A stretch of 36,513 nt of DNA, taken from assembly GCA_945902255.1 (NCBI GenBank), contig CAMDMO010000001.1:1-36513 (forward strand), read 5' to 3'. Below are positions 17,747-34,138 of this stretch, in pieces (within the stretch, counting starts at the first letter, position 1; each line of letters begins with the position of its first letter). Source of the DNA: Rickettsia typhi (GTDB taxonomy: Bacteria > Pseudomonadota > Alphaproteobacteria > Rickettsiales > UBA1997). Under the pieces are notes generated by a model. The model did not search any database. It saw only the letters and a program-made list of their open reading frames with translations, and was not told where the DNA came from. The position numbers were made by a program, and so were the translations under genes.

Positions 17747-17821
17747 TGGTGCTGTCAGCGGGAATCGAACCCGCGATCTCTTCATTACCAATGAAGTGCT
17801 CTACCGCTGAGCCATGACAGC
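17747..17821 (-). tRNA. tRNA-Thr (anticodon GGU), CCA encoded
   Basis: Folded by hand on the minus strand: GCTGTCA tg GCTC agcggta GAGC a CTTCA ttGGTaa TGAAG agatc GCGGG ttcgatt CCCGC TGACAGC a CCA. This gives a 7/4/5/5-bp cloverleaf with a TTCGATT T-loop. Confidence 0.9.
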
Positions 17822-25421: not shown

Positions 25422-26825
25422 ATGAAAAATTTAAAATTTTTAGTATTTTTTCTAGCTTGTTTTTTCATCTCCGCTCAAAGTTTTGCGGCAGTTTCGCTTT
25501 CAATTAAAAATGAAGATATTCCAAAAACAAAAATTTTATTTTTTGGATTTGATTCAACCGATCCAAATCTAAGAATTGATAGTTTTGACATTCTTGAACG
25601 CATTAGAAGAAACTTAAAAACCACTGATCTTTTTGAAGTTATAAAGCAATCTGGACAAATGGAAGTTGGAAAAGCTGCACCAATCGTAACCAACGGCAAA
25701 ACAGCCTTAAAAACCGCTCCTCAAACTCAAGTTGCGCCAACCACAAGTCAAGAAAACCTTACCGTTGAGTCAGTTCCAAATTTTGAAAAATATAATAAAG
25801 CCGGAATTGGCGCTATCGTAATTGGTCAATTTAATTATGACCAAACCGGCAATTTAGAAGTTAGAATTCGCATGTGGGATGTTCTTGACCAAAGACAATT
25901 ATTTGGCAAATTTTACACCTCTTCGCGCGATAATTATCGCAAAGTTGCGAACATTATTTCTGATGAAATTTTTAAAGCAATTAGCGGTGAAAAAATCGGA
26001 CATTTTAACTCACAAATTCTTTATGTATCTGAGTCTGGACCACTTACAAAAAGAGTTAAAAAAATTAATATAATTGATTTTGATGGTGAAAATCATCGCA
26101 CTTTAAGCGATGGTCGCGACTTAGTTTTGACGCCAATTTTTTCTAAAAAACGCGATGAAATCTTCTACTTACGCTATTTTCAAACTCGCCCACAAATTTT
26201 TTCACTAAATTTACAAAATTTAAGAATTAAAAAAATCGGTGGATTTCCAGGAACTACCTTTGCCGCAAGCACAGTTCCAAACAAACCAGATTCACTTTTA
26301 CTATCTGCAATTATTGATGGAAATAGTGATATTTATGAGCTAGATATAAATTTAAATTCCGCAAGAAAGCTAACTAAAAGCCCCGCCATTGATACTACAG
26401 CCTCTTATTCGCCAGATGGAAAATATATTACTTTCGCTTCAGATCGCGATTCTGGACAACAGCTTTATGTGATGGATGCAAATGGCAGTAGCGTTAAGAG
26501 AATTAGCTCGTCCTCTGGATCTTACTCAAAACCAATGTGGTCTCCAGACGGAAGGTTAATTGCTTTTACCAAAATAAAATCAAATCAATTTTTTATTGGC
26601 GTAATTTCACCAAATGGTGCTGGCGAAAAAATTCTAACCGGCGGATATTTAGCCGAAGGCGCTAAATGGTCACCAAATGGTCGTTACTTAATATATTCAA
26701 AAAAGAAAGGCCCTTACGGCCAAGACAGCGTTCCTCGTCTATATATAATTGATGTTACTACCGGATTTGAATTTGAATTTCCAACCCCAACCAGCGAAGG
26801 CGCCACCGACCCTGATTGGGCTTAA
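25422..26825 (+). CDS. tolB: Tol-Pal system periplasmic protein TolB
   Basis: I place the start at ATG 25422 (MKNLKFLVFFLACFFISAQSFA, a signal peptide). The track ORF start at 25353 overlaps hslV. C-terminal beta-propeller repeats are present (SPDGKYITFASDR, WSPDGRLIAF, WSPNGRYLIY). Confidence 0.88.
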   Translation: MKNLKFLVFFLACFFISAQSFAAVSLSIKNEDIPKTKILFFGFDSTDPNLRIDSFDILERIRRNLKTTDLFEVIKQSGQMEVGKAAPIVTNGKTALKTAPQTQVAPTTSQENLTVESVPNFEKYNKAGIGAIVIGQFNYDQTGNLEVRIRMWDVLDQRQLFGKFYTSSRDNYRKVANIISDEIFKAISGEKIGHFNSQILYVSESGPLTKRVKKINIIDFDGENHRTLSDGRDLVLTPIFSKKRDEIFYLRYFQTRPQIFSLNLQNLRIKKIGGFPGTTFAASTVPNKPDSLLLSAIIDGNSDIYELDINLNSARKLTKSPAIDTTASYSPDGKYITFASDRDSGQQLYVMDANGSSVKRISSSSGSYSKPMWSPDGRLIAFTKIKSNQFFIGVISPNGAGEKILTGGYLAEGAKWSPNGRYLIYSKKKGPYGQDSVPRLYIIDVTTGFEFEFPTPTSEGATDPDWA

Positions 26826-26844
26826 AGCGGCGGTCTTCGACCGC

Positions 26845-26869
26845 AAAAATAGCCTAAACGGCTATTTTT
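26845..26869 (+). terminator. hairpin AAAAATAGCC-taaac-GGCTATTTTT after tolB
   Basis: Perfect 10-bp stem, 5-nt loop and a T-run on the 3' arm. It is nested with a second hairpin (GCGGTC-ttc-GACCGC, 26830-26844) inside an outer inverted repeat (26821-26828 / 26871-26878). Confidence 0.5.
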
Positions 26870-26994
26870 AGCTTTAAGCGGGCAAAGGAGCGCGGCGACG
26901 CCTGCCCCGGCGCGAGTCGTCTTCGAGCGCAGCGAGAAAAGCGACGAAGCGTTCGCACACTCCAAAGCGTTAGTTTGTACGAAAAAGCGTTAAA

Positions 26995-27015
26995 AAATCG
27001 ATTAATAATCGATTT
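26995..27015. promoter_or_regulatory. perfect 10+1+10 palindrome AAATCGATTA-A-TAATCGATTT upstream of the restriction gene
   Basis: Read directly from the sequence. It is centred at 27005, 24-44 nt upstream of the R start codon. It is a candidate operator or promoter-overlapping site. Confidence 0.3.
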
Positions 27016-27034
27016 ATAATAACAATTAATAATA

Positions 27035-27055
27035 AACCATGCACACCAACTTACT
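27035..27055 (+). repeat. direct repeat, left copy (AACCATGCACACCaACtTaCT), containing the R start codon
   Basis: 13/13 identical and then 18/21 identical to 28882-28902. A TTAAAAAATC 10-mer also recurs (26990-26999 and 28870-28879). Confidence 0.7.
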
Positions 27056-27884
27056 CATAGCAATAAAAAATATAGTAAACAACCCCATATCAAATCCAAC
27101 ATCTCATAGCGCTTCATTAAATCGCATAAATAATACCGGAGAAACTTTAGAGCTTTACATAAAAGATATTTTTTGTAACTCACTTCGCATTACAGAGCAA
27201 AATAAAAAAACAGAAATTTTCTCAAATTATTTTTCTTATATTGGAAATCAAAATAATCCACCAGATCTCATAATAAAAAATGGAGATGCGATTGAAATAA
27301 AAAAAATTGAAAATTCTCATTCTGGAATCGCTTTAAATAGCTCTTACCCAAAAGATAAATTATATTCTGACAGCTCAATGATCACAAAAAGCTGTAAAGA
27401 ATGTGAAGATTGGGAAGAAAAAGATCTTCTTTACGCGATAGGATTCATTAAAAATAAAGTATTAAAATCTCTTTGGTTTGTTTACGGAGATTGCTACGCT
27501 GCAGACAAAGAAACTTACGAAAGAATTAAGAAAAAAATCTCTTCTGGCTTAAATGATATATCAAATATAGAGCTCTCAGAAACAAATGAGCTTGGAAGAG
27601 TGAATAAAGTCGATCCTCTTGGAATAACTTATCTGCGCATAAGAGGAATGTGGCACATAGAAAATCCAAAAAAAGTTTTTGACTATGTTTGCAAAGAATC
27701 AGAATCAAATTTTACCGTAAATGCATTAATTTTGCGAAATAAGTATGATTCATTTCCTGAAAACGACAAAAGAGAAATAGAACAAATTAAAAAATCAGGA
27801 TTTACCATTCAAGATGTCAAGATTAAGTCCCCAAACAATCCAGCAAAAATGCTTGATGCAAAACTAATTTCATTCAATAACTAA
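27039..27884 (+). CDS. type II restriction endonuclease, NgoPII-like (probable GGCC)
   Basis: 281 aa, immediately upstream (2-nt gap) of a HaeIII-like m5C methyltransferase. Blocks NGDAIEIKKIE, ELGRVNKVDPLGITYLRIRGMWHIENP and IKIKSPNNPA match my recollection of R.NgoPII. No database search was possible. Confidence 0.65.
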   Translation: MHTNLLIAIKNIVNNPISNPTSHSASLNRINNTGETLELYIKDIFCNSLRITEQNKKTEIFSNYFSYIGNQNNPPDLIIKNGDAIEIKKIENSHSGIALNSSYPKDKLYSDSSMITKSCKECEDWEEKDLLYAIGFIKNKVLKSLWFVYGDCYAADKETYERIKKKISSGLNDISNIELSETNELGRVNKVDPLGITYLRIRGMWHIENPKKVFDYVCKESESNFTVNALILRNKYDSFPENDKREIEQIKKSGFTIQDVKIKSPNNPAKMLDAKLISFNN

Positions 27885-27886
27885 AT

Positions 27887-28873
27887 ATGAGAGTAGCATC
27901 ATTATTTTCCGGCGCTGGAGGTCTAGATAAAGGATTTGAAAAAGCCGGTTTTCATGTAATTTGGGCAAACGAATATGATTCAACTATCTGGGATACTTTT
28001 AAGCTAAATTTTCCAAATACAACTCTTGACAAAAGAAGTATTGTTAAAGTTCAAAGCAATGAGGTTCCCGATATTGACGGCATAATAGGTGGTCCTCCAT
28101 GTCAAAGCTGGAGCGAAGCTGGAGCTGGTCGCGGAATTAACGATAAGCGCGGTCAACTATTTTATGAATATATACGCTTACTAAAAGACAAGAAGCCTAA
28201 ATTCTTTTTTGCCGAGAATGTTTCTGGGATACTTCATCCAAAACACGCTATAGCTTTTTCTAGCATCATTCAAGAATTCAAAGACGCGGGATATGAAGTC
28301 TCTTACAAACTGCTAAACACCAATAATTATGATGTGCCTCAAGATCGCTTGCGCCTCATAATAATTGGCTATCACATAAATTTAGGAAAGAAGTTTGAGT
28401 TTCCAGAGCCACAAGAATATAAACCCGTTCTAAAAGATATAATTTATGATTTACAAGAAGCAACCCCCGCAAAAGATGGAAATAAAACAAATGGTGATGA
28501 ATTAAATATTGCAAATCATGAATATATGAATGGCGGGTTCTCAACAATATATATGTCTCGCAATAGAGTTAGGGCTTGGAATGAGCCATCTTTTACTATT
28601 CAAGCCGGTGGCAGACATGCTCCCATTCACCCTCAAGCTCCAAAAATGCAATTTGTTGAGCAAAATAAAAGGATCTTCGCTCCAGAAAAAGAACATTTAT
28701 ATCGCCGATTATCAGTTAGAGAATGCGCAAGAATTCAAACATTTCCCGACAACTTTATTTTTAAGTATAAAAATATTGCAGATGGCTATAAAATGATCGG
28801 AAATGCTGTGCCTGTAAATTTTGCTTATCATTTAGCGAAAAAAATATTTGAAGATTTATCCGCAAAGAATTAA
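27887..28873 (+). CDS. DNA (cytosine-5)-methyltransferase, M.HaeIII/M.NgoPII-like (probable GGCC)
   Basis: 328 aa with all m5C motifs: LFSGAGGLDKGF (I), GGPPCQSWS (IV), AENVSG (VI), QDRLRL (VIII), RRLSVRECARIQTFPD (IX) and GNAVPV (X). The variable region NHEY...STIYMSRNRVRAWNEPSFTIQAGGR...HPQAP closely follows M.HaeIII as I recall it. Confidence 0.9.
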   Translation: MRVASLFSGAGGLDKGFEKAGFHVIWANEYDSTIWDTFKLNFPNTTLDKRSIVKVQSNEVPDIDGIIGGPPCQSWSEAGAGRGINDKRGQLFYEYIRLLKDKKPKFFFAENVSGILHPKHAIAFSSIIQEFKDAGYEVSYKLLNTNNYDVPQDRLRLIIIGYHINLGKKFEFPEPQEYKPVLKDIIYDLQEATPAKDGNKTNGDELNIANHEYMNGGFSTIYMSRNRVRAWNEPSFTIQAGGRHAPIHPQAPKMQFVEQNKRIFAPEKEHLYRRLSVRECARIQTFPDNFIFKYKNIADGYKMIGNAVPVNFAYHLAKKIFEDLSAKN

Positions 28874-28881
28874 AAAATCTC

Positions 28882-28902
28882 AACCATGCACACCTACCTC
28901 CT
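28882..28902 (+). repeat. direct repeat, right copy (AACCATGCACACCtACcTcCT), containing the yejB start codon
   Basis: See 27035-27055. The two copies bracket exactly the R-M gene pair, with repeat starts 1847 bp apart. Confidence 0.7.
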
Positions 28903-29977
28903 AAAACGCTTCCTACTAATATTCCCCACACTATTCATCATAATGATGATAAACTTCCTTATCATCCAAACCGCTCCAGGCGGCCCAGTCGAGCGCTTTA
29001 TCGCTCAAATGAATCACGCCACCAAAACTAGTGGCGAAATAAGCGAAACCTCACTCACTCAACAAAATTTTAATCCAAATTCATCAACCACTTCCAGTCT
29101 TAAATATCAAGGATCACAAGGAATTGATCCTGAAATAATTAAAAAAATTGAAAAACTCTACGGCTTTGATTTGCCTCTTTGGCAACGCTTTTATCTAATG
29201 ATGAAAAAATTTATCACTTTTGATTTTGGCGAAAGTTTTTATCAAGATAGAAAAGTTCTAGATTTAATTTTTGATAAACTTCCAATATCAATATCACTAG
29301 GCCTTTGGACCACATTACTAATTTACTTAATTTCAATTCCTTTGGGAATAAAAAAAGCAATTAATGACGGCTCAAAATTCGATATTTCAAGCAGCAGTTT
29401 AGTAATTTTTTTACACGCCATTCCTTCATTTCTTTTTGCAATTTTATTAATAATTATTTTTGCCGGCGGAAATTTTTTAAACATCTTTCCTTTGCGCGGC
29501 TTAGTTTCAGAGAATTTCCATCAATTAAATTTTGCTGAAAAAATTCTTGATTATTTTTGGCATTTAACTCTGCCCATAATTGCCATGACCATTGGCGGAT
29601 TCGCATCTCTAACTTTTTTCTGCAAAAATTCTTTTATTGAAGAAATTAACAAACAATATGTCTTAAGCGCTTACGCCAAAGGCTTAAATCAACGCCAAGT
29701 AATTTATCGCCATATATTTCCAAACGCGATGATGATTGTAATTGCTGGCATTCCCGCCGCTTTAATTGGAATAATTTTTACCAGCTCAATGTTAATTGAA
29801 GTAATTTTTTCACTAGATGGCTTGGGTCTATTAGGCTATGAGGCAGCGCTATCGCGAGACTATCCAATAATGTTTGCTACACTTTATATTTTTACTTTAT
29901 TAGGATTGTTAACTAATATTATCAGCGACTTTACTTACAAAATAGTCGACCCTAGAATTAACTTTCAAAAATCATAA
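28886..29977 (+). CDS. yejB: ABC transporter permease, YejB-like (peptide/opine family)
   Basis: 363 aa, collinear with E. coli YejB as recalled: N-terminus M..YL..R.LL..PTL, QTAPGGPV, SISLGLWTTLLIYLISIPLGIKKA, LIEVIFSLDGLGLLGYEA and VDPRI. Confidence 0.85.
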   Translation: MHTYLLKRFLLIFPTLFIIMMINFLIIQTAPGGPVERFIAQMNHATKTSGEISETSLTQQNFNPNSSTTSSLKYQGSQGIDPEIIKKIEKLYGFDLPLWQRFYLMMKKFITFDFGESFYQDRKVLDLIFDKLPISISLGLWTTLLIYLISIPLGIKKAINDGSKFDISSSSLVIFLHAIPSFLFAILLIIIFAGGNFLNIFPLRGLVSENFHQLNFAEKILDYFWHLTLPIIAMTIGGFASLTFFCKNSFIEEINKQYVLSAYAKGLNQRQVIYRHIFPNAMMIVIAGIPAALIGIIFTSSMLIEVIFSLDGLGLLGYEAALSRDYPIMFATLYIFTLLGLLTNIISDFTYKIVDPRINFQKS

Positions 29978-29979
29978 AT

Positions 29980-31254
29980 ATGGCAGATCAAACTACTATT
30001 TACCTAGCCTCAACTTTAGTTTTAATTTTTATTTCAGCGCTTTTTTCTTGCTCAGAAACTTCAATTACCGCCGCTTCCAGAGCAAAAATTCATCGCCTAA
30101 AAAACGAAGGAAATAAACGCGCAAAAAAACTTGAAAAATTCTTGTCAGAGCGCGAAAAAGTTATTAGCGCAATGTTGGTTGGAAACAACGCCATCAACAT
30201 TTTAGCATCAGCACTTGCAACCAGCATATTAATAAAGCTTTTTGGCGAAACTGGATTAGTTTATGCCACAATTGGCATGACAATTCTGATTTTGATTTTT
30301 GCCGAAATTGCTCCAAAAACTTTAGCCCTAAAAGCACCAGAAACCATCGCTTTATTTCTTACGCCATTAATTAATATTTTGGTTAAAATTTGCTTTCCCC
30401 TAACCCATTTAACTCAAAAAATTGTCGATATTTTATTCGTGCCGTTTTTTATTAATTCAAAAAATAAAACCAATGAATCAGAATTAGAAGAAATTCGCGA
30501 TACCGTTGACCTAAAGGCTAAAGAAGGTACAATCTTTAAATATGACAAAGATTTAATTGACGGAGTTCTTGACTTATCTGATACTGAAATTAGCGAAATC
30601 ATGGTGCATCGCAAAGATATTATTTCAATTAATATCAACCTTCCAACCAGCGAAATTGTTAAGCAGGCGCTTAATTTGAATTACACTAGAATTCCTTTAT
30701 GGAGCGAAACAAAAGAAAATATCGTTGCAATTTTAAATGTAAGAAAATTACTCAAAGCTCTACATTCTTACAAAGAAAATATTGAAAAATTCGAAATTGG
30801 CAGCGCCACAAGTCAACCTTGGTTCGTGCCGTCAAGCAACACTTTACGCTCTCAACTTTTTGCCTTTAGAAAAAAGAAAAAAAGATTTTCTTTGGTCGTG
30901 GACGAATATGGATCAATATTGGGGTTATTAACTCTCGAAGATATTTTGGAAGAAATTGTTGGCGAAATTAAAGAACAAGAAGATGCAAATGAAATTAATA
31001 TCATCAAAACAAAATCCAATTTTTATAAAATCGCTGGCAAAACTTTAATTCGCGACATTAACAAAAAATTAGATTGGAACATTGCCGAACATGATCACGC
31101 TTACAACCTAACCGCTTTCATCATCAATAATTTAGGAAGAATTCCCGAAGAAAAAGAAAATTTAGTAATTAATGATTATTATTTCGAAATTTTAAAAAGA
31201 AAAAATCACGACCTAATTTTGATAAAGGTGAAAAAACTTAAAAAGCATCATTGA
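29980..31254 (+). CDS. CNNM/DUF21 - CBS pair - CorC/HlyC family membrane protein (putative divalent-cation efflux / hemolysin-C-like)
   Basis: 424 aa with an N-terminal 4-TM DUF21-like region (CSETSITAAS...), a central CBS-pair region (IMVHRKDI..., VVDEYGSILGLLTLEDILEEIVGEI) and a C-terminal CorC_HlyC-like domain. Confidence 0.8.
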   Translation: MADQTTIYLASTLVLIFISALFSCSETSITAASRAKIHRLKNEGNKRAKKLEKFLSEREKVISAMLVGNNAINILASALATSILIKLFGETGLVYATIGMTILILIFAEIAPKTLALKAPETIALFLTPLINILVKICFPLTHLTQKIVDILFVPFFINSKNKTNESELEEIRDTVDLKAKEGTIFKYDKDLIDGVLDLSDTEISEIMVHRKDIISININLPTSEIVKQALNLNYTRIPLWSETKENIVAILNVRKLLKALHSYKENIEKFEIGSATSQPWFVPSSNTLRSQLFAFRKKKKRFSLVVDEYGSILGLLTLEDILEEIVGEIKEQEDANEINIIKTKSNFYKIAGKTLIRDINKKLDWNIAEHDHAYNLTAFIINNLGRIPEEKENLVINDYYFEILKRKNHDLILIKVKKLKKHH

Positions 31255-32434: not shown

Positions 32435-34138
32435 ATGAAAAAATATAAAAATATTGAGTTCGATATTGTTATACCGGTACATAAAAAAGATCTCGCAGTC
32501 CTCGAATATTGCATAGAAGCCGCAAAAAATAAAATCATCGGTGTCAGAAAAATCTTCATAGTTTCCAAAGAAAGATATAGCGAAAATGCTGAATGGGTTG
32601 ATGAAGCCTCATTTCCATTTTCAATAGAATTAGCGAAAAGCTATGTTGGAACTTCTTGTGGCTGGTATTTTCAACAGATGCTAAAAATGTATGCCCCCTT
32701 AGTAATTCCGGGCATCACCGAAAATGTTTTAATTCTTGACAGCGACACGGTTTTCTTTCGCAAAGTCAGCATGTTTGATAGTGAAGGTCGCCCTCTTTAT
32801 AATATTAGTAAGGACACCAAACTATGTCGCAGATCCTTTGATCAATTGGTTGCAGCCCATATAAGAAAATTACTTCCATCTATCGCCACAGAAAATCTTC
32901 CTGAAGAATTTCAAACTCTTTCCGGCATTAGTCATAACATGATTTTTAACCAAAAAATCTTAAGAGAGTTATTTAAAAAAATCGAAGATCACGACGCTTC
33001 TGGCGATCCTTTTTATAAAATATTTTTTAAAAATTCCGGCATATCTCACGGCGCCTCAGAATATCAAATCTATTTTTGCTTTTTATTAGTTTATCATAGA
33101 AACGAGGTTGGTTTTAGAAGATTAAGATATAAAAATACCGCTGACTTGAATATTAAAAAATATCGTCGTCGCCTTAAATATCACTATTGCTCTTTTCATT
33201 CTTATTTAAGAAGCACGGTTATCAAATCTTGGCGCATGAAGCTAAGAAAAATTATCAATAAATTATTTTTTATTGATAAGTGGAATTGTGGAATTGCAAA
33301 TTGTGGAATTGAAAATTTTCTAACACTTCCTAATCAGAAAATTAATTGGCTTGCAAGCGTTAGCTCTCTTGACTTCCGCGCCGATCCTTTTGGAATCATT
33401 AGTCACGATGCTAAAAAACATATTTTCTTTGAAGATTACAGTTATTTAAAAAGAAAAGGTGAAATTATTCGCGCCGAAATTGACGATAATTTTAACATTC
33501 TAAACAAAACTTCTCTACTTACAAAACCCTATCACCTCTCTTACCCTTATATTTTCGAAAATGATGGCGAGAACTTCATGCTGGTTGAAAGTTATAAAGC
33601 AAAAAAACTTGAACTATATAAAATCACTAAAAATCTTGGATTAGAAAAAGTCAAAGATTTACTCAGCAATCTTGAAATAGTTGATCCTTCAATAATAAAA
33701 TTTAACGAAATTTGGTGGTTATTTTTCAATTTAAATAATGAGGGCGATGGGAAACTTCACCTAGCTTATAGCGATAACTTGCTTGGCGAATGGAAAATGC
33801 ACCCAAAAAATCCAATTAAAGATAATATTTCCTCCGCTCGTTCAGCTGGAAAAATTTTCTTACATAATGGCTCCTTATATAGACCGGCACAAAATTGCCA
33901 ATTTAATTATGGCAATTCAATCGTCATAAATAAAATAACTACCCTTGATTCACAAAATTACGAAGAGCAAGCTGAAATTGAAATCCATCCCAATCAGTTG
34001 GGGCATTATCCAGATGGACTTCACAACATATCGCCTTTAGGAAAAAATTTAACCTTAATCGATGGCAAAAAGAAAATTTTTGTTTTTTACAAGCCACTTA
34101 TAGCATTATTTAGAGTTTTTTACAAAAATTTCTTGTAG
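32435..34138 (+). CDS. two-domain protein: N-terminal GT-A-like putative glycosyltransferase (DxD = DSD) fused to a C-terminal beta-propeller-like domain
   Basis: 567-aa ORF. The N-terminus has DIVIPVHKKDL, GWYFQQMLKMY and LILDSDTVFF, which I recall from DUF6492-type nucleotide-sugar transferases. The C-terminus has WNCGI, DFRADPFG, FFEDYSYLKRKGEI, DPSIIKF and LAYSDNLLGEWKMHPKNPI. I recall this pattern from bacterial proteins annotated as the glucosamine inositolphosphorylceramide transferase-like / GH43-like propeller family. Confidence 0.6.
   Translation: MKKYKNIEFDIVIPVHKKDLAVLEYCIEAAKNKIIGVRKIFIVSKERYSENAEWVDEASFPFSIELAKSYVGTSCGWYFQQMLKMYAPLVIPGITENVLILDSDTVFFRKVSMFDSEGRPLYNISKDTKLCRRSFDQLVAAHIRKLLPSIATENLPEEFQTLSGISHNMIFNQKILRELFKKIEDHDASGDPFYKIFFKNSGISHGASEYQIYFCFLLVYHRNEVGFRRLRYKNTADLNIKKYRRRLKYHYCSFHSYLRSTVIKSWRMKLRKIINKLFFIDKWNCGIANCGIENFLTLPNQKINWLASVSSLDFRADPFGIISHDAKKHIFFEDYSYLKRKGEIIRAEIDDNFNILNKTSLLTKPYHLSYPYIFENDGENFMLVESYKAKKLELYKITKNLGLEKVKDLLSNLEIVDPSIIKFNEIWWLFFNLNNEGDGKLHLAYSDNLLGEWKMHPKNPIKDNISSARSAGKIFLHNGSLYRPAQNCQFNYGNSIVINKITTLDSQNYEEQAEIEIHPNQLGHYPDGLHNISPLGKNLTLIDGKKKIFVFYKPLIALFRVFYKNFL

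Follow-up and report, generated by a model that had tools for sequence, protein, structure and literature searches.

Introduction

Insertions of restriction-modification (R-M) systems accompanied by a long duplication of the target and by no other mobility genes have been described by Nobusato et al. 2000 (Gene 259:99) and Furuta et al. 2010 (NAR 38:2428, PMC2853133). In the class set out in 2010, the duplication exceeds 30 bp (45–49 bp in the examples given) and a sister genome retains a single-copy empty site (PMC2853133); the insert holds homologues of a restriction gene and a methyltransferase gene, is smaller than 20 kb, and has no other mobile-element genes. Repeats lying inside the flanking genes and gene fusions at the junctions have also been described (PMC2853133). 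In a further group the R-M units are transposon-like: terminal inverted repeats go together with target duplications of 8 bp, as seen in Xanthomonas oryzae and in Neisseria gonorrhoeae (Furuta et al. 2010, Fig. 11). Here, we analyze a 36,513-nt stretch of DNA (contig CAMDMO010000001.1; "the window" denotes this whole stretch) from an uncultured Rickettsiales-like lineage that is present in several metagenomes. It contains a restriction gene (R) and a methyltransferase gene (M), together called the cassette, which lie between tolB and yejB and are bounded by a 13-bp direct repeat that covers the start codons of R and yejB. The features on which the analysis turns are the following:

25422–26825, + strand: tolB, with Pfam TolB_N and PD40 matches; the left chromosomal flank of the insertion site
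27035–27047, + strand: left copy of the 13-bp repeat (AACC-ATG-CAC-ACC), comprising a 4-nt leader, the start codon and R codons 2–3
27039–27884, + strand: R, a full-length type II restriction endonuclease of the NgoPII family (PF09521), 281 aa
27887–28873, + strand: M, a C5 cytosine methyltransferase, HaeIII-like (GGCC), 328 aa (PF00145, TIGR00675, 1dct)
28882–28894, + strand: right copy of the 13-bp repeat, comprising a 4-nt leader, the start codon and yejB codons 2–3
28886–29977, + strand: yejB, a microcin C-type ABC transporter permease, 363 aa (NF011712)

The cassette resembles the Nobusato/Furuta class in that R and M stand alone between conserved chromosomal genes, with a direct repeat and with no integrase or transposase; the insert of ~1.85 kb holds R and M and no other mobile-element genes, and so shares the gene content and size that define the class. 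It differs in the length of the exact repeat, which is 13 bp (at most 25 bp when read as a split composite with 35 nt between its parts in one copy and 2 nt in the other) and thus below the >30 bp of the class, and in its position, since the repeat spans two start codons and gives a pair of unrelated genes the same leader, ATG and two codons. Because the repeat is shorter than 30 bp and the empty site is known at the gene-order level only, the case works like that class and is not a formal member of it. As in the transposon-like units, both ends of this type II unit bear a short direct repeat; unlike them, the cassette has no terminal inverted repeats, and no inverted-repeat pair with arms at the cassette ends was found.

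As enzymes, R and M resemble the NgoPII, MthTI and HaeIII GGCC systems, having a full-length PF09521 endonuclease and a full-length M.HaeIII homologue. They depart from these systems in their Rickettsiales-like metagenomic host, in the order R then M with a 2-nt gap, and in having no close relative (R at most 72% and M at most 83% identical).

Double illegitimate recombination and homology-facilitated illegitimate recombination at microhomologies reportedly occur when Acinetobacter baylyi takes up foreign DNA, in work by de Vries, Wackernagel, Hulter and Harms. The joining considered below would be like these events in being recombinase-free and in using short matches, from a few bases up to roughly a dozen; the Acinetobacter events, however, are experimental and usually come without target duplication. 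SPDIR is described in bioRxiv 10.1101/2023.11.22.568220.

Results

A GGCC cassette between tolB and yejB

Five relatives (loci L004–L008, with YejB proteins 75–81% identical to that of the window) carry tolB, a spacer of 145–349 nt and yejB, without R-M genes; the TolB C-terminus ...GATDPDWA is kept in all five, where tolB directly precedes yejB. The distance from tolB to the R start in the window is 213 nt, which lies within the range of tolB–yejB distances in these relatives. The five loci without R-M indicate that R and M are a foreign, lineage-specific insertion between tolB and yejB, and R occupies the place that the yejB start has in the relatives. An inserted cassette without a transposase or integrase nearby had been proposed in the initial annotation of the window, and both parts of that proposal stand: inspection of the neighboring genes within ~8 kb of the cassette revealed no integrase or transposase gene. 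The only tRNA of the window lies at 17750–17821, ~9 kb off the cassette, and the locus is not of the integrase-islet type.

The R protein matches PF09521 with 386.4 bits (cutoff 25), with profile positions 1–262 of 262 aligned on residues 3–263. It has 6621 homologues, the closest listed relative being 72% identical; identity is 47% with the Neisseria gonorrhoeae locus and 51% with a Methanothermobacter plasmid copy. Plasmids and at least one phage carry genes of the NgoPII family, which is consistent with horizontal arrival. M matches PF00145 with 321 bits, is also matched by TIGR00675, and aligns end to end with the M.HaeIII structure 1dct (E 5e-122, residues 1–320); GGCC specificity of the cassette is therefore a reasonable inference. 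We infer that the R and M enzymes would be active. GGCC occurs 16 times in the window against 58.8 expected from trinucleotides, whereas CCGG (57 against 43.9) is not depleted, a pattern that would fit a resident, active GGCC system.

The comparison of GGCC depletion covered the window, L096, L098, L106 and L004–L010. Other genomes that host GGCC R-M systems show it too, as do L006 and L008, two loci that have no cassette at this site. The closest M homologue (P0242; 83% identical) belongs to a pair (L106 3040–4984; also L107) whose endonuclease is of the HaeIII family (PF09556) and not of the NgoPII family; unrelated R genes appear to have been swapped beside near-identical GGCC methyltransferases.

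A direct repeat on two start codons

The 13-mer AACCATGCACACC is present exactly at 27035–27047 and 28882–28894. Its copies start 1847 bp apart, enclose R and M, and extend without gaps to 21 nt with 18 of 21 positions identical, as first annotated. The window holds no other match to it even with one mismatch (0.01 expected for this 13-mer), so that the alternative of a common genomic motif falls away. Both copies stand in the same register on their start codons, and the boundaries of the cassette are real and precise.

M ends 12 nt before yejB, and we place the true yejB start at 28886, because NF011712 aligns from residue 1 (500.4 bits, cutoff 445; residues 1–362 on profile positions 1–363 of 364). 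Gene callers in public assemblies begin yejB at Met21 (28946; 343 aa), which creates a false "intergenic" gap of 72 nt and masks the shared start.

Exact 13-mers that recur are common as such, with 142 in the window. When the R-start zone (240 nt) was compared with the M-end zone (340 nt), an exact match of at least 13 nt arose in 3 of 2000 shuffles. All 27 remaining gene starts of the window lack the aaccATGCACACC context, and the chance that the gene after the cassette would share MHT, its codons and the 4-nt leader is estimated, from family frequencies and base composition, at ~1e-6. At three other GGCC R-M loci, flanking matches measured only 7–8 nt, none being longer than 8. We therefore regard the R and yejB starts as mechanistically linked.

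N-termini of the two proteins

The initial annotation held that R carries the yejB N-terminus, and that yejB is the original because MHTYLLKRFLL aligns with YejB. Neither claim is supported by comparison with the two protein families. The NgoPII family itself begins M-x-T-N-L-L or M-T-N-L-L, with T before N in 116 of 118 homologues. An MHT start is present in 3 of 120 listed R homologues, among them the two closest (P0001, 72% identical; P0005, 70%), whose genes read ATG CAT ACA AAT behind unrelated leaders. At L108, an unrelated R-M locus from a pattern scan of JGI metagenomes (R 57% identical), R starts ATGCACACCAATCTACTT / ATGCACACCAAT, which contains ATGCACACCAA, behind the leader ...gcatatc. 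A start shared by R genes elsewhere, together with its upstream nucleotides, had been named as evidence against a yejB origin: the peptide and the first 11 coding nucleotides do recur (L108), but the AACC leader does not, having been found upstream of none of the R homologues compared (the closest ones and L108). The MHTNLL peptide and ATGCACACCAA thus fall inside the R family's own variation; R keeps its own N-terminus, and an R/YejB N-terminal chimera is not supported by these comparisons. Codon usage, tried as a test for a foreign copy, did not discriminate: CAC is 1 of 3 His codons and ACC 3 of 11 Thr codons in R, neither being atypical.

YejB homologues begin M-x-x-Y-[FL]-L-K-R, but conservation sets in only at Y4, which the exact repeat does not include. 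Among 71 relatives, 6 have T at position 3, 3 have H at position 2, and one starts MHT. In P0126 (locus L101; YejB 80% identical, gatB upstream, no R-M), yejB starts ATGCACACCTAC, and 51 of its first 60 nt are identical to the window when counted by eye on the printed sequences. The ATGCACACC start accordingly occurs natively in the yejB family, and the yejB start of the window looks native. This start occurs elsewhere in both the R and the YejB families, and the argument for yejB as the source of the repeat holds equally for R. The 18-of-21 extension, at first read as part of the duplication, comes from residues that are conserved separately, NLL in R and Y[LF]L in YejB, and not from duplicated DNA.

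In a neighbor-joining tree with star-like distances, P0126/L101 is not the sister of the window YejB. The nearest YejB clade (P0124/L109) has an MTK start, rplS and a hypothetical gene upstream, and an unrelated leader. A likeness between the right leader TTAAAAAATctcAACC and the L006 leader TTAAAAAATaaaAACC was rejected as background, since 1.9% of 30-nt windows match so well (9 loci inspected).

Spacer, AT-rich stretch and 10-mer

Between tolB and the left copy of the 13-mer, and at the end of M, the following features are present:

26826–26952, + strand: native tolB–yejB spacer, GC-rich and structured, with core GGCGCGAGTCGTCTTCGAG...GAGAAAAGCnACGAAGCGT, recognized by alignment to L007 and L008
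26990–26999, + strand: left copy of the 10-mer TTAAAAAATC, of weak significance
27000–27034, + strand: AT-rich 35-nt stretch between the 10-mer and the left 13-mer, whose right-hand counterpart is only "tc"
28870–28879, + strand: right copy of TTAAAAAATC, holding the M stop codon TAA (28871–28873)

The spacer aligns with its tolB–yejB counterparts in L008, where one copy is present, and in L007, where there are two; to these the first 127 nt of the window spacer are orthologous, and the left flank is therefore chromosomal at least to 26952. The spacer has a predicted fold of -60.5 kcal/mol (z -2.4) and a GC content of 47%, against 35% for the window. The structured element spans 26820–26952 (L007 5660–5960; L008 5728–5860), with a nested hairpin at 26820–26879 and an invariant core, GGCGCGAGT(C/T)GTCTTCGAG...GAGAAAAGCnACGAAGCGT, that is shared with two relatives and present twice in L007. 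An Rfam scan gave no match in the tolB–yejB spacer. The element possibly combines a terminator with a small RNA or a protein-binding site.

The AT-rich stretch is internally repetitive, with ATTAATAAT at 27001–09 and 27025–33 and AATCGATT at 26996–27003 and 27007–14. It holds an ATCGAT palindrome and a perfect TATAAT (27015–27020), the sole obvious promoter-like element upstream of R. In a scan of 26700–29100 for consensus promoters and terminators, counts were not above those of shuffled sequence; the scan called no promoter on the + strand upstream of R and found no sigma-70-like one in the AT-rich stretch. The stretch could be an R-M promoter/operator or slippage-generated filler.

The 10-mer lies where it was first annotated, with the M stop codon inside its right copy. 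It has 4 matches in the window against 1.5 expected, and matches of at least 10 nt between such zones occur in 0.4–1.3% of random pairs of real sequence (p ~0.004–0.013), which makes it weak evidence of a footprint. The M C-terminus was rejected as a boundary marker: tails after ...DL vary in the family from 0 to ~90 extra residues, and the endings ...DLSAKN in the window and ...DLSK in the closest homologue are not diagnostic.

Genomic neighborhood

The genes around the cassette include tolB, hslV, an ampG-like gene, virB4, yejB, corC, rpsL and rpsG. Downstream of yejB stands:

29980–31254, + strand: CNNM/CorC-type gene (corC), 2 nt after yejB and its conserved partner

L101, L109 and the window all retain yejB next to corC, each with a different gene upstream. 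That position is taken by gatB in L101 and L105, by rplQ-rplS-hypothetical in L109, and by tolB in the window and L004–L008. Because the upstream gene differs among lineages that are ~80% identical, the yejB 5′ boundary appears to be a recurrent rearrangement breakpoint.

Farther downstream, the rpsL-rpsG-fusA operon, normally contiguous, is unusually interrupted in the window by a 567-aa open reading frame (32435–34138; Pfam GINT1_N match in precomputed annotation) between rpsG and fusA. One assembly of the same population (L002 and L088, sample ERZ19566624) has a 22-nt gap in tolB relative to the window, at approximately window positions 26180–26460, which splits it into open reading frames of 254 and 117 aa and is either a variant with a disrupted tolB or an assembly error. 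L089 departs from the window sequence after 25808.

Origin of the repeat

We tentatively favor, at slightly less than even confidence, a recombinase-free joining guided by short homology between similar 5′ ends, with that stretch duplicated. In this scenario, a 1.85-kb GGCC pair (an NgoPII-type R and a HaeIII-type M) would have entered the tolB–yejB spacer of an ancestor at the 5′ end of yejB, carrying no recombinase and relying on illegitimate recombination at short homology. R would have begun approximately ATG CAY ACN AAY and yejB ATG CAC ACC TAC, and the joint would have formed there; the shared stretch, with a few leader bases, would have been duplicated on both sides of the insert, leaving the 13-bp repeat as the footprint of the junction. 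Because the two genes would have been joined at similar starts and the stretch duplicated, both proteins would keep family-typical N-termini and the insertion would be harmless. Under any of the scenarios, yejB and corC stand 12 nt behind M, and yejB must be transcribed with R-M or from inside M; the space outside M is too small for the two genes to have their own promoter, and transcription together with R-M is presumed.

Several observations weigh against this scenario. A simple microhomology crossover does not explain the identity of the AACC leader, which neither family conserves. MHT is rare in both families (3/120 R, 1/71 YejB), so that a native MHT in both is plausible only, and the position of P0126/L101 outside a sister relationship with the window YejB weakens the case for a native MHT in yejB. 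The 10-mer repeat (p ~0.01) is left unexplained. The empty site that the initial annotation had anticipated in related genomes exists as tolB–yejB without R-M in the five relatives, but no near-identical genome with a single-copy site was found, and exact-protein look-ups with R, the 363- and 343-aa forms of YejB, and HslV returned no empty site of the same species. Identity to the window is 99.8% or higher for all contigs of the same population, and the cassette is present in each one that spans the site. The next YejB relatives are at most 83% identical, the homologue search falling to them from 100%, and the pre-insertion sequence is thus unseen. The best YejB relative in a GTDB scan is 81% identical, a scan of JGI metagenomes for the yejB-start pattern gave 0 matches, and the yejB leaders of L004–L008 are not alignable to the window at 75–81% YejB identity.

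The repeat could instead have been copied from yejB outright. In a pure target-site duplication, R would have lost its own start and would use the copied yejB leader, ATG and codons 2–3, perhaps with the yejB promoter too, and no prior similarity of R and yejB would be required. The native spacer on the left flank and the R ATG at the relatives' tolB–yejB distance are as such a duplication predicts; L101 shows ATGCACACCTAC at a yejB without R-M, and the closest R homologues differ from the window in codons (CAT ACA) and leaders. We nevertheless consider this unlikely: the insert must begin exactly at R codon 4 and in frame, and yejB must supply by luck the T that R has in 116 of 118 homologues and YejB in only 6 of 71. 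MHTN also starts the closest R homologues, ATGCACACCAA is present in L108, nothing in the R peptide is identifiably yejB-derived, and L101 is not sister to the window YejB. A longer composite duplication of the Nobusato/Furuta type seems less probable again. Its target would run from TTAAAAAATC through AACCATGCACACC, with the insert ends joined at microhomologies, and would measure no less than 25 bp, rising to 58 bp should the AT-rich 35 nt be native; a later 33-nt indel would have made the copies unequal. It takes in both repeats, which are collinear and flank the cassette, and the empirical p of 0.004–0.013 for the 10-mer; the M stop lies inside the 10-mer in a family whose C-terminal tails vary freely, and the 35-nt stretch has the internal repeats that would be expected of AT-rich DNA prone to slippage. 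The price is a second event, and neither copy can be derived from the other by a clean indel; four copies of the AT-rich 10-mer are present in the window, and the likeness of the right leader to the L006 yejB leader is at background (1.9% per 30-nt window, 9 loci).

The direction could also be the reverse, with the 13 bp coming from R in a terminally redundant or circular/tandem 1847-bp unit that has the R start at both ends, the right copy having overwritten the yejB leader and its variable first three codons. T3 is near-invariant in R and variable in YejB, whose positions 2–3 are tolerant; L108 natively has ATGCACACCAA; and tandem amplification has been reported for R-M units that lie between direct repeats (PMC2853133). 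What makes this distinctly doubtful is that L101 has ATGCACACCTAC at yejB without R-M, and that R would bring upstream DNA with it, yet the tolB–R distance equals a native tolB–yejB spacer. The tandem or circular junction (...GCAAAGAATTAAAAAATCTCAACCATGCACACCAACTTACTCATAGC) is present in none of the same-population contigs, and any empty-site relative bearing AACCATGCACACCTAC at yejB would be incompatible with this direction. As for coincidence, the cassette would have reached its place 12 nt upstream of yejB in some unrelated way, with the starts sharing 13 nt by chance. Both families can natively begin ATGCACACC, 142 different 13-mers recur in the window, and, given MHT in both proteins, the CAC ACC codons are not unusual for R. 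Set against the ~1e-6 estimate for shared MHT, codons and 4-nt leader, the 3 of 2000 shuffles with a match of at least 13 nt even when position is ignored, and the lack of this context at any other gene start in the window, chance is a very improbable explanation.

Discussion

The locus is a neat but ordinary example of R-M mobility, one more case of a phenomenon described since 2000, and its analysis corrects the idea of the restriction enzyme as an N-terminal chimera. The direct repeat predicts a precise excision product, with the junction ...CAATTAATAATAAACCATGCACACCTACCTCCTAAAACGC, that would be detectable in reads.

A broader proposal, which we regard as very unlikely, is that NgoPII-type cassettes use a recombinase-free "start-codon docking," in which the 5′ end of R pairs with the similar 5′ end of a host gene. 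If true, a cassette would land in frame at a gene start, take over the upstream region and leave a short duplication that preserves both genes and would allow precise excision. If also general, docking would give selfish R-M units a separate route by which to insert without harm and gain immediate expression.

For the Rickettsiales-like lineage itself, the window fixes, to the base pair, the boundaries of a minimal mobile R-M unit within a reduced genome, a setting in which the gain of defense genes is rarely documented. By duplicating the translation start of the gene that follows, an insertion of this kind can preserve that gene.

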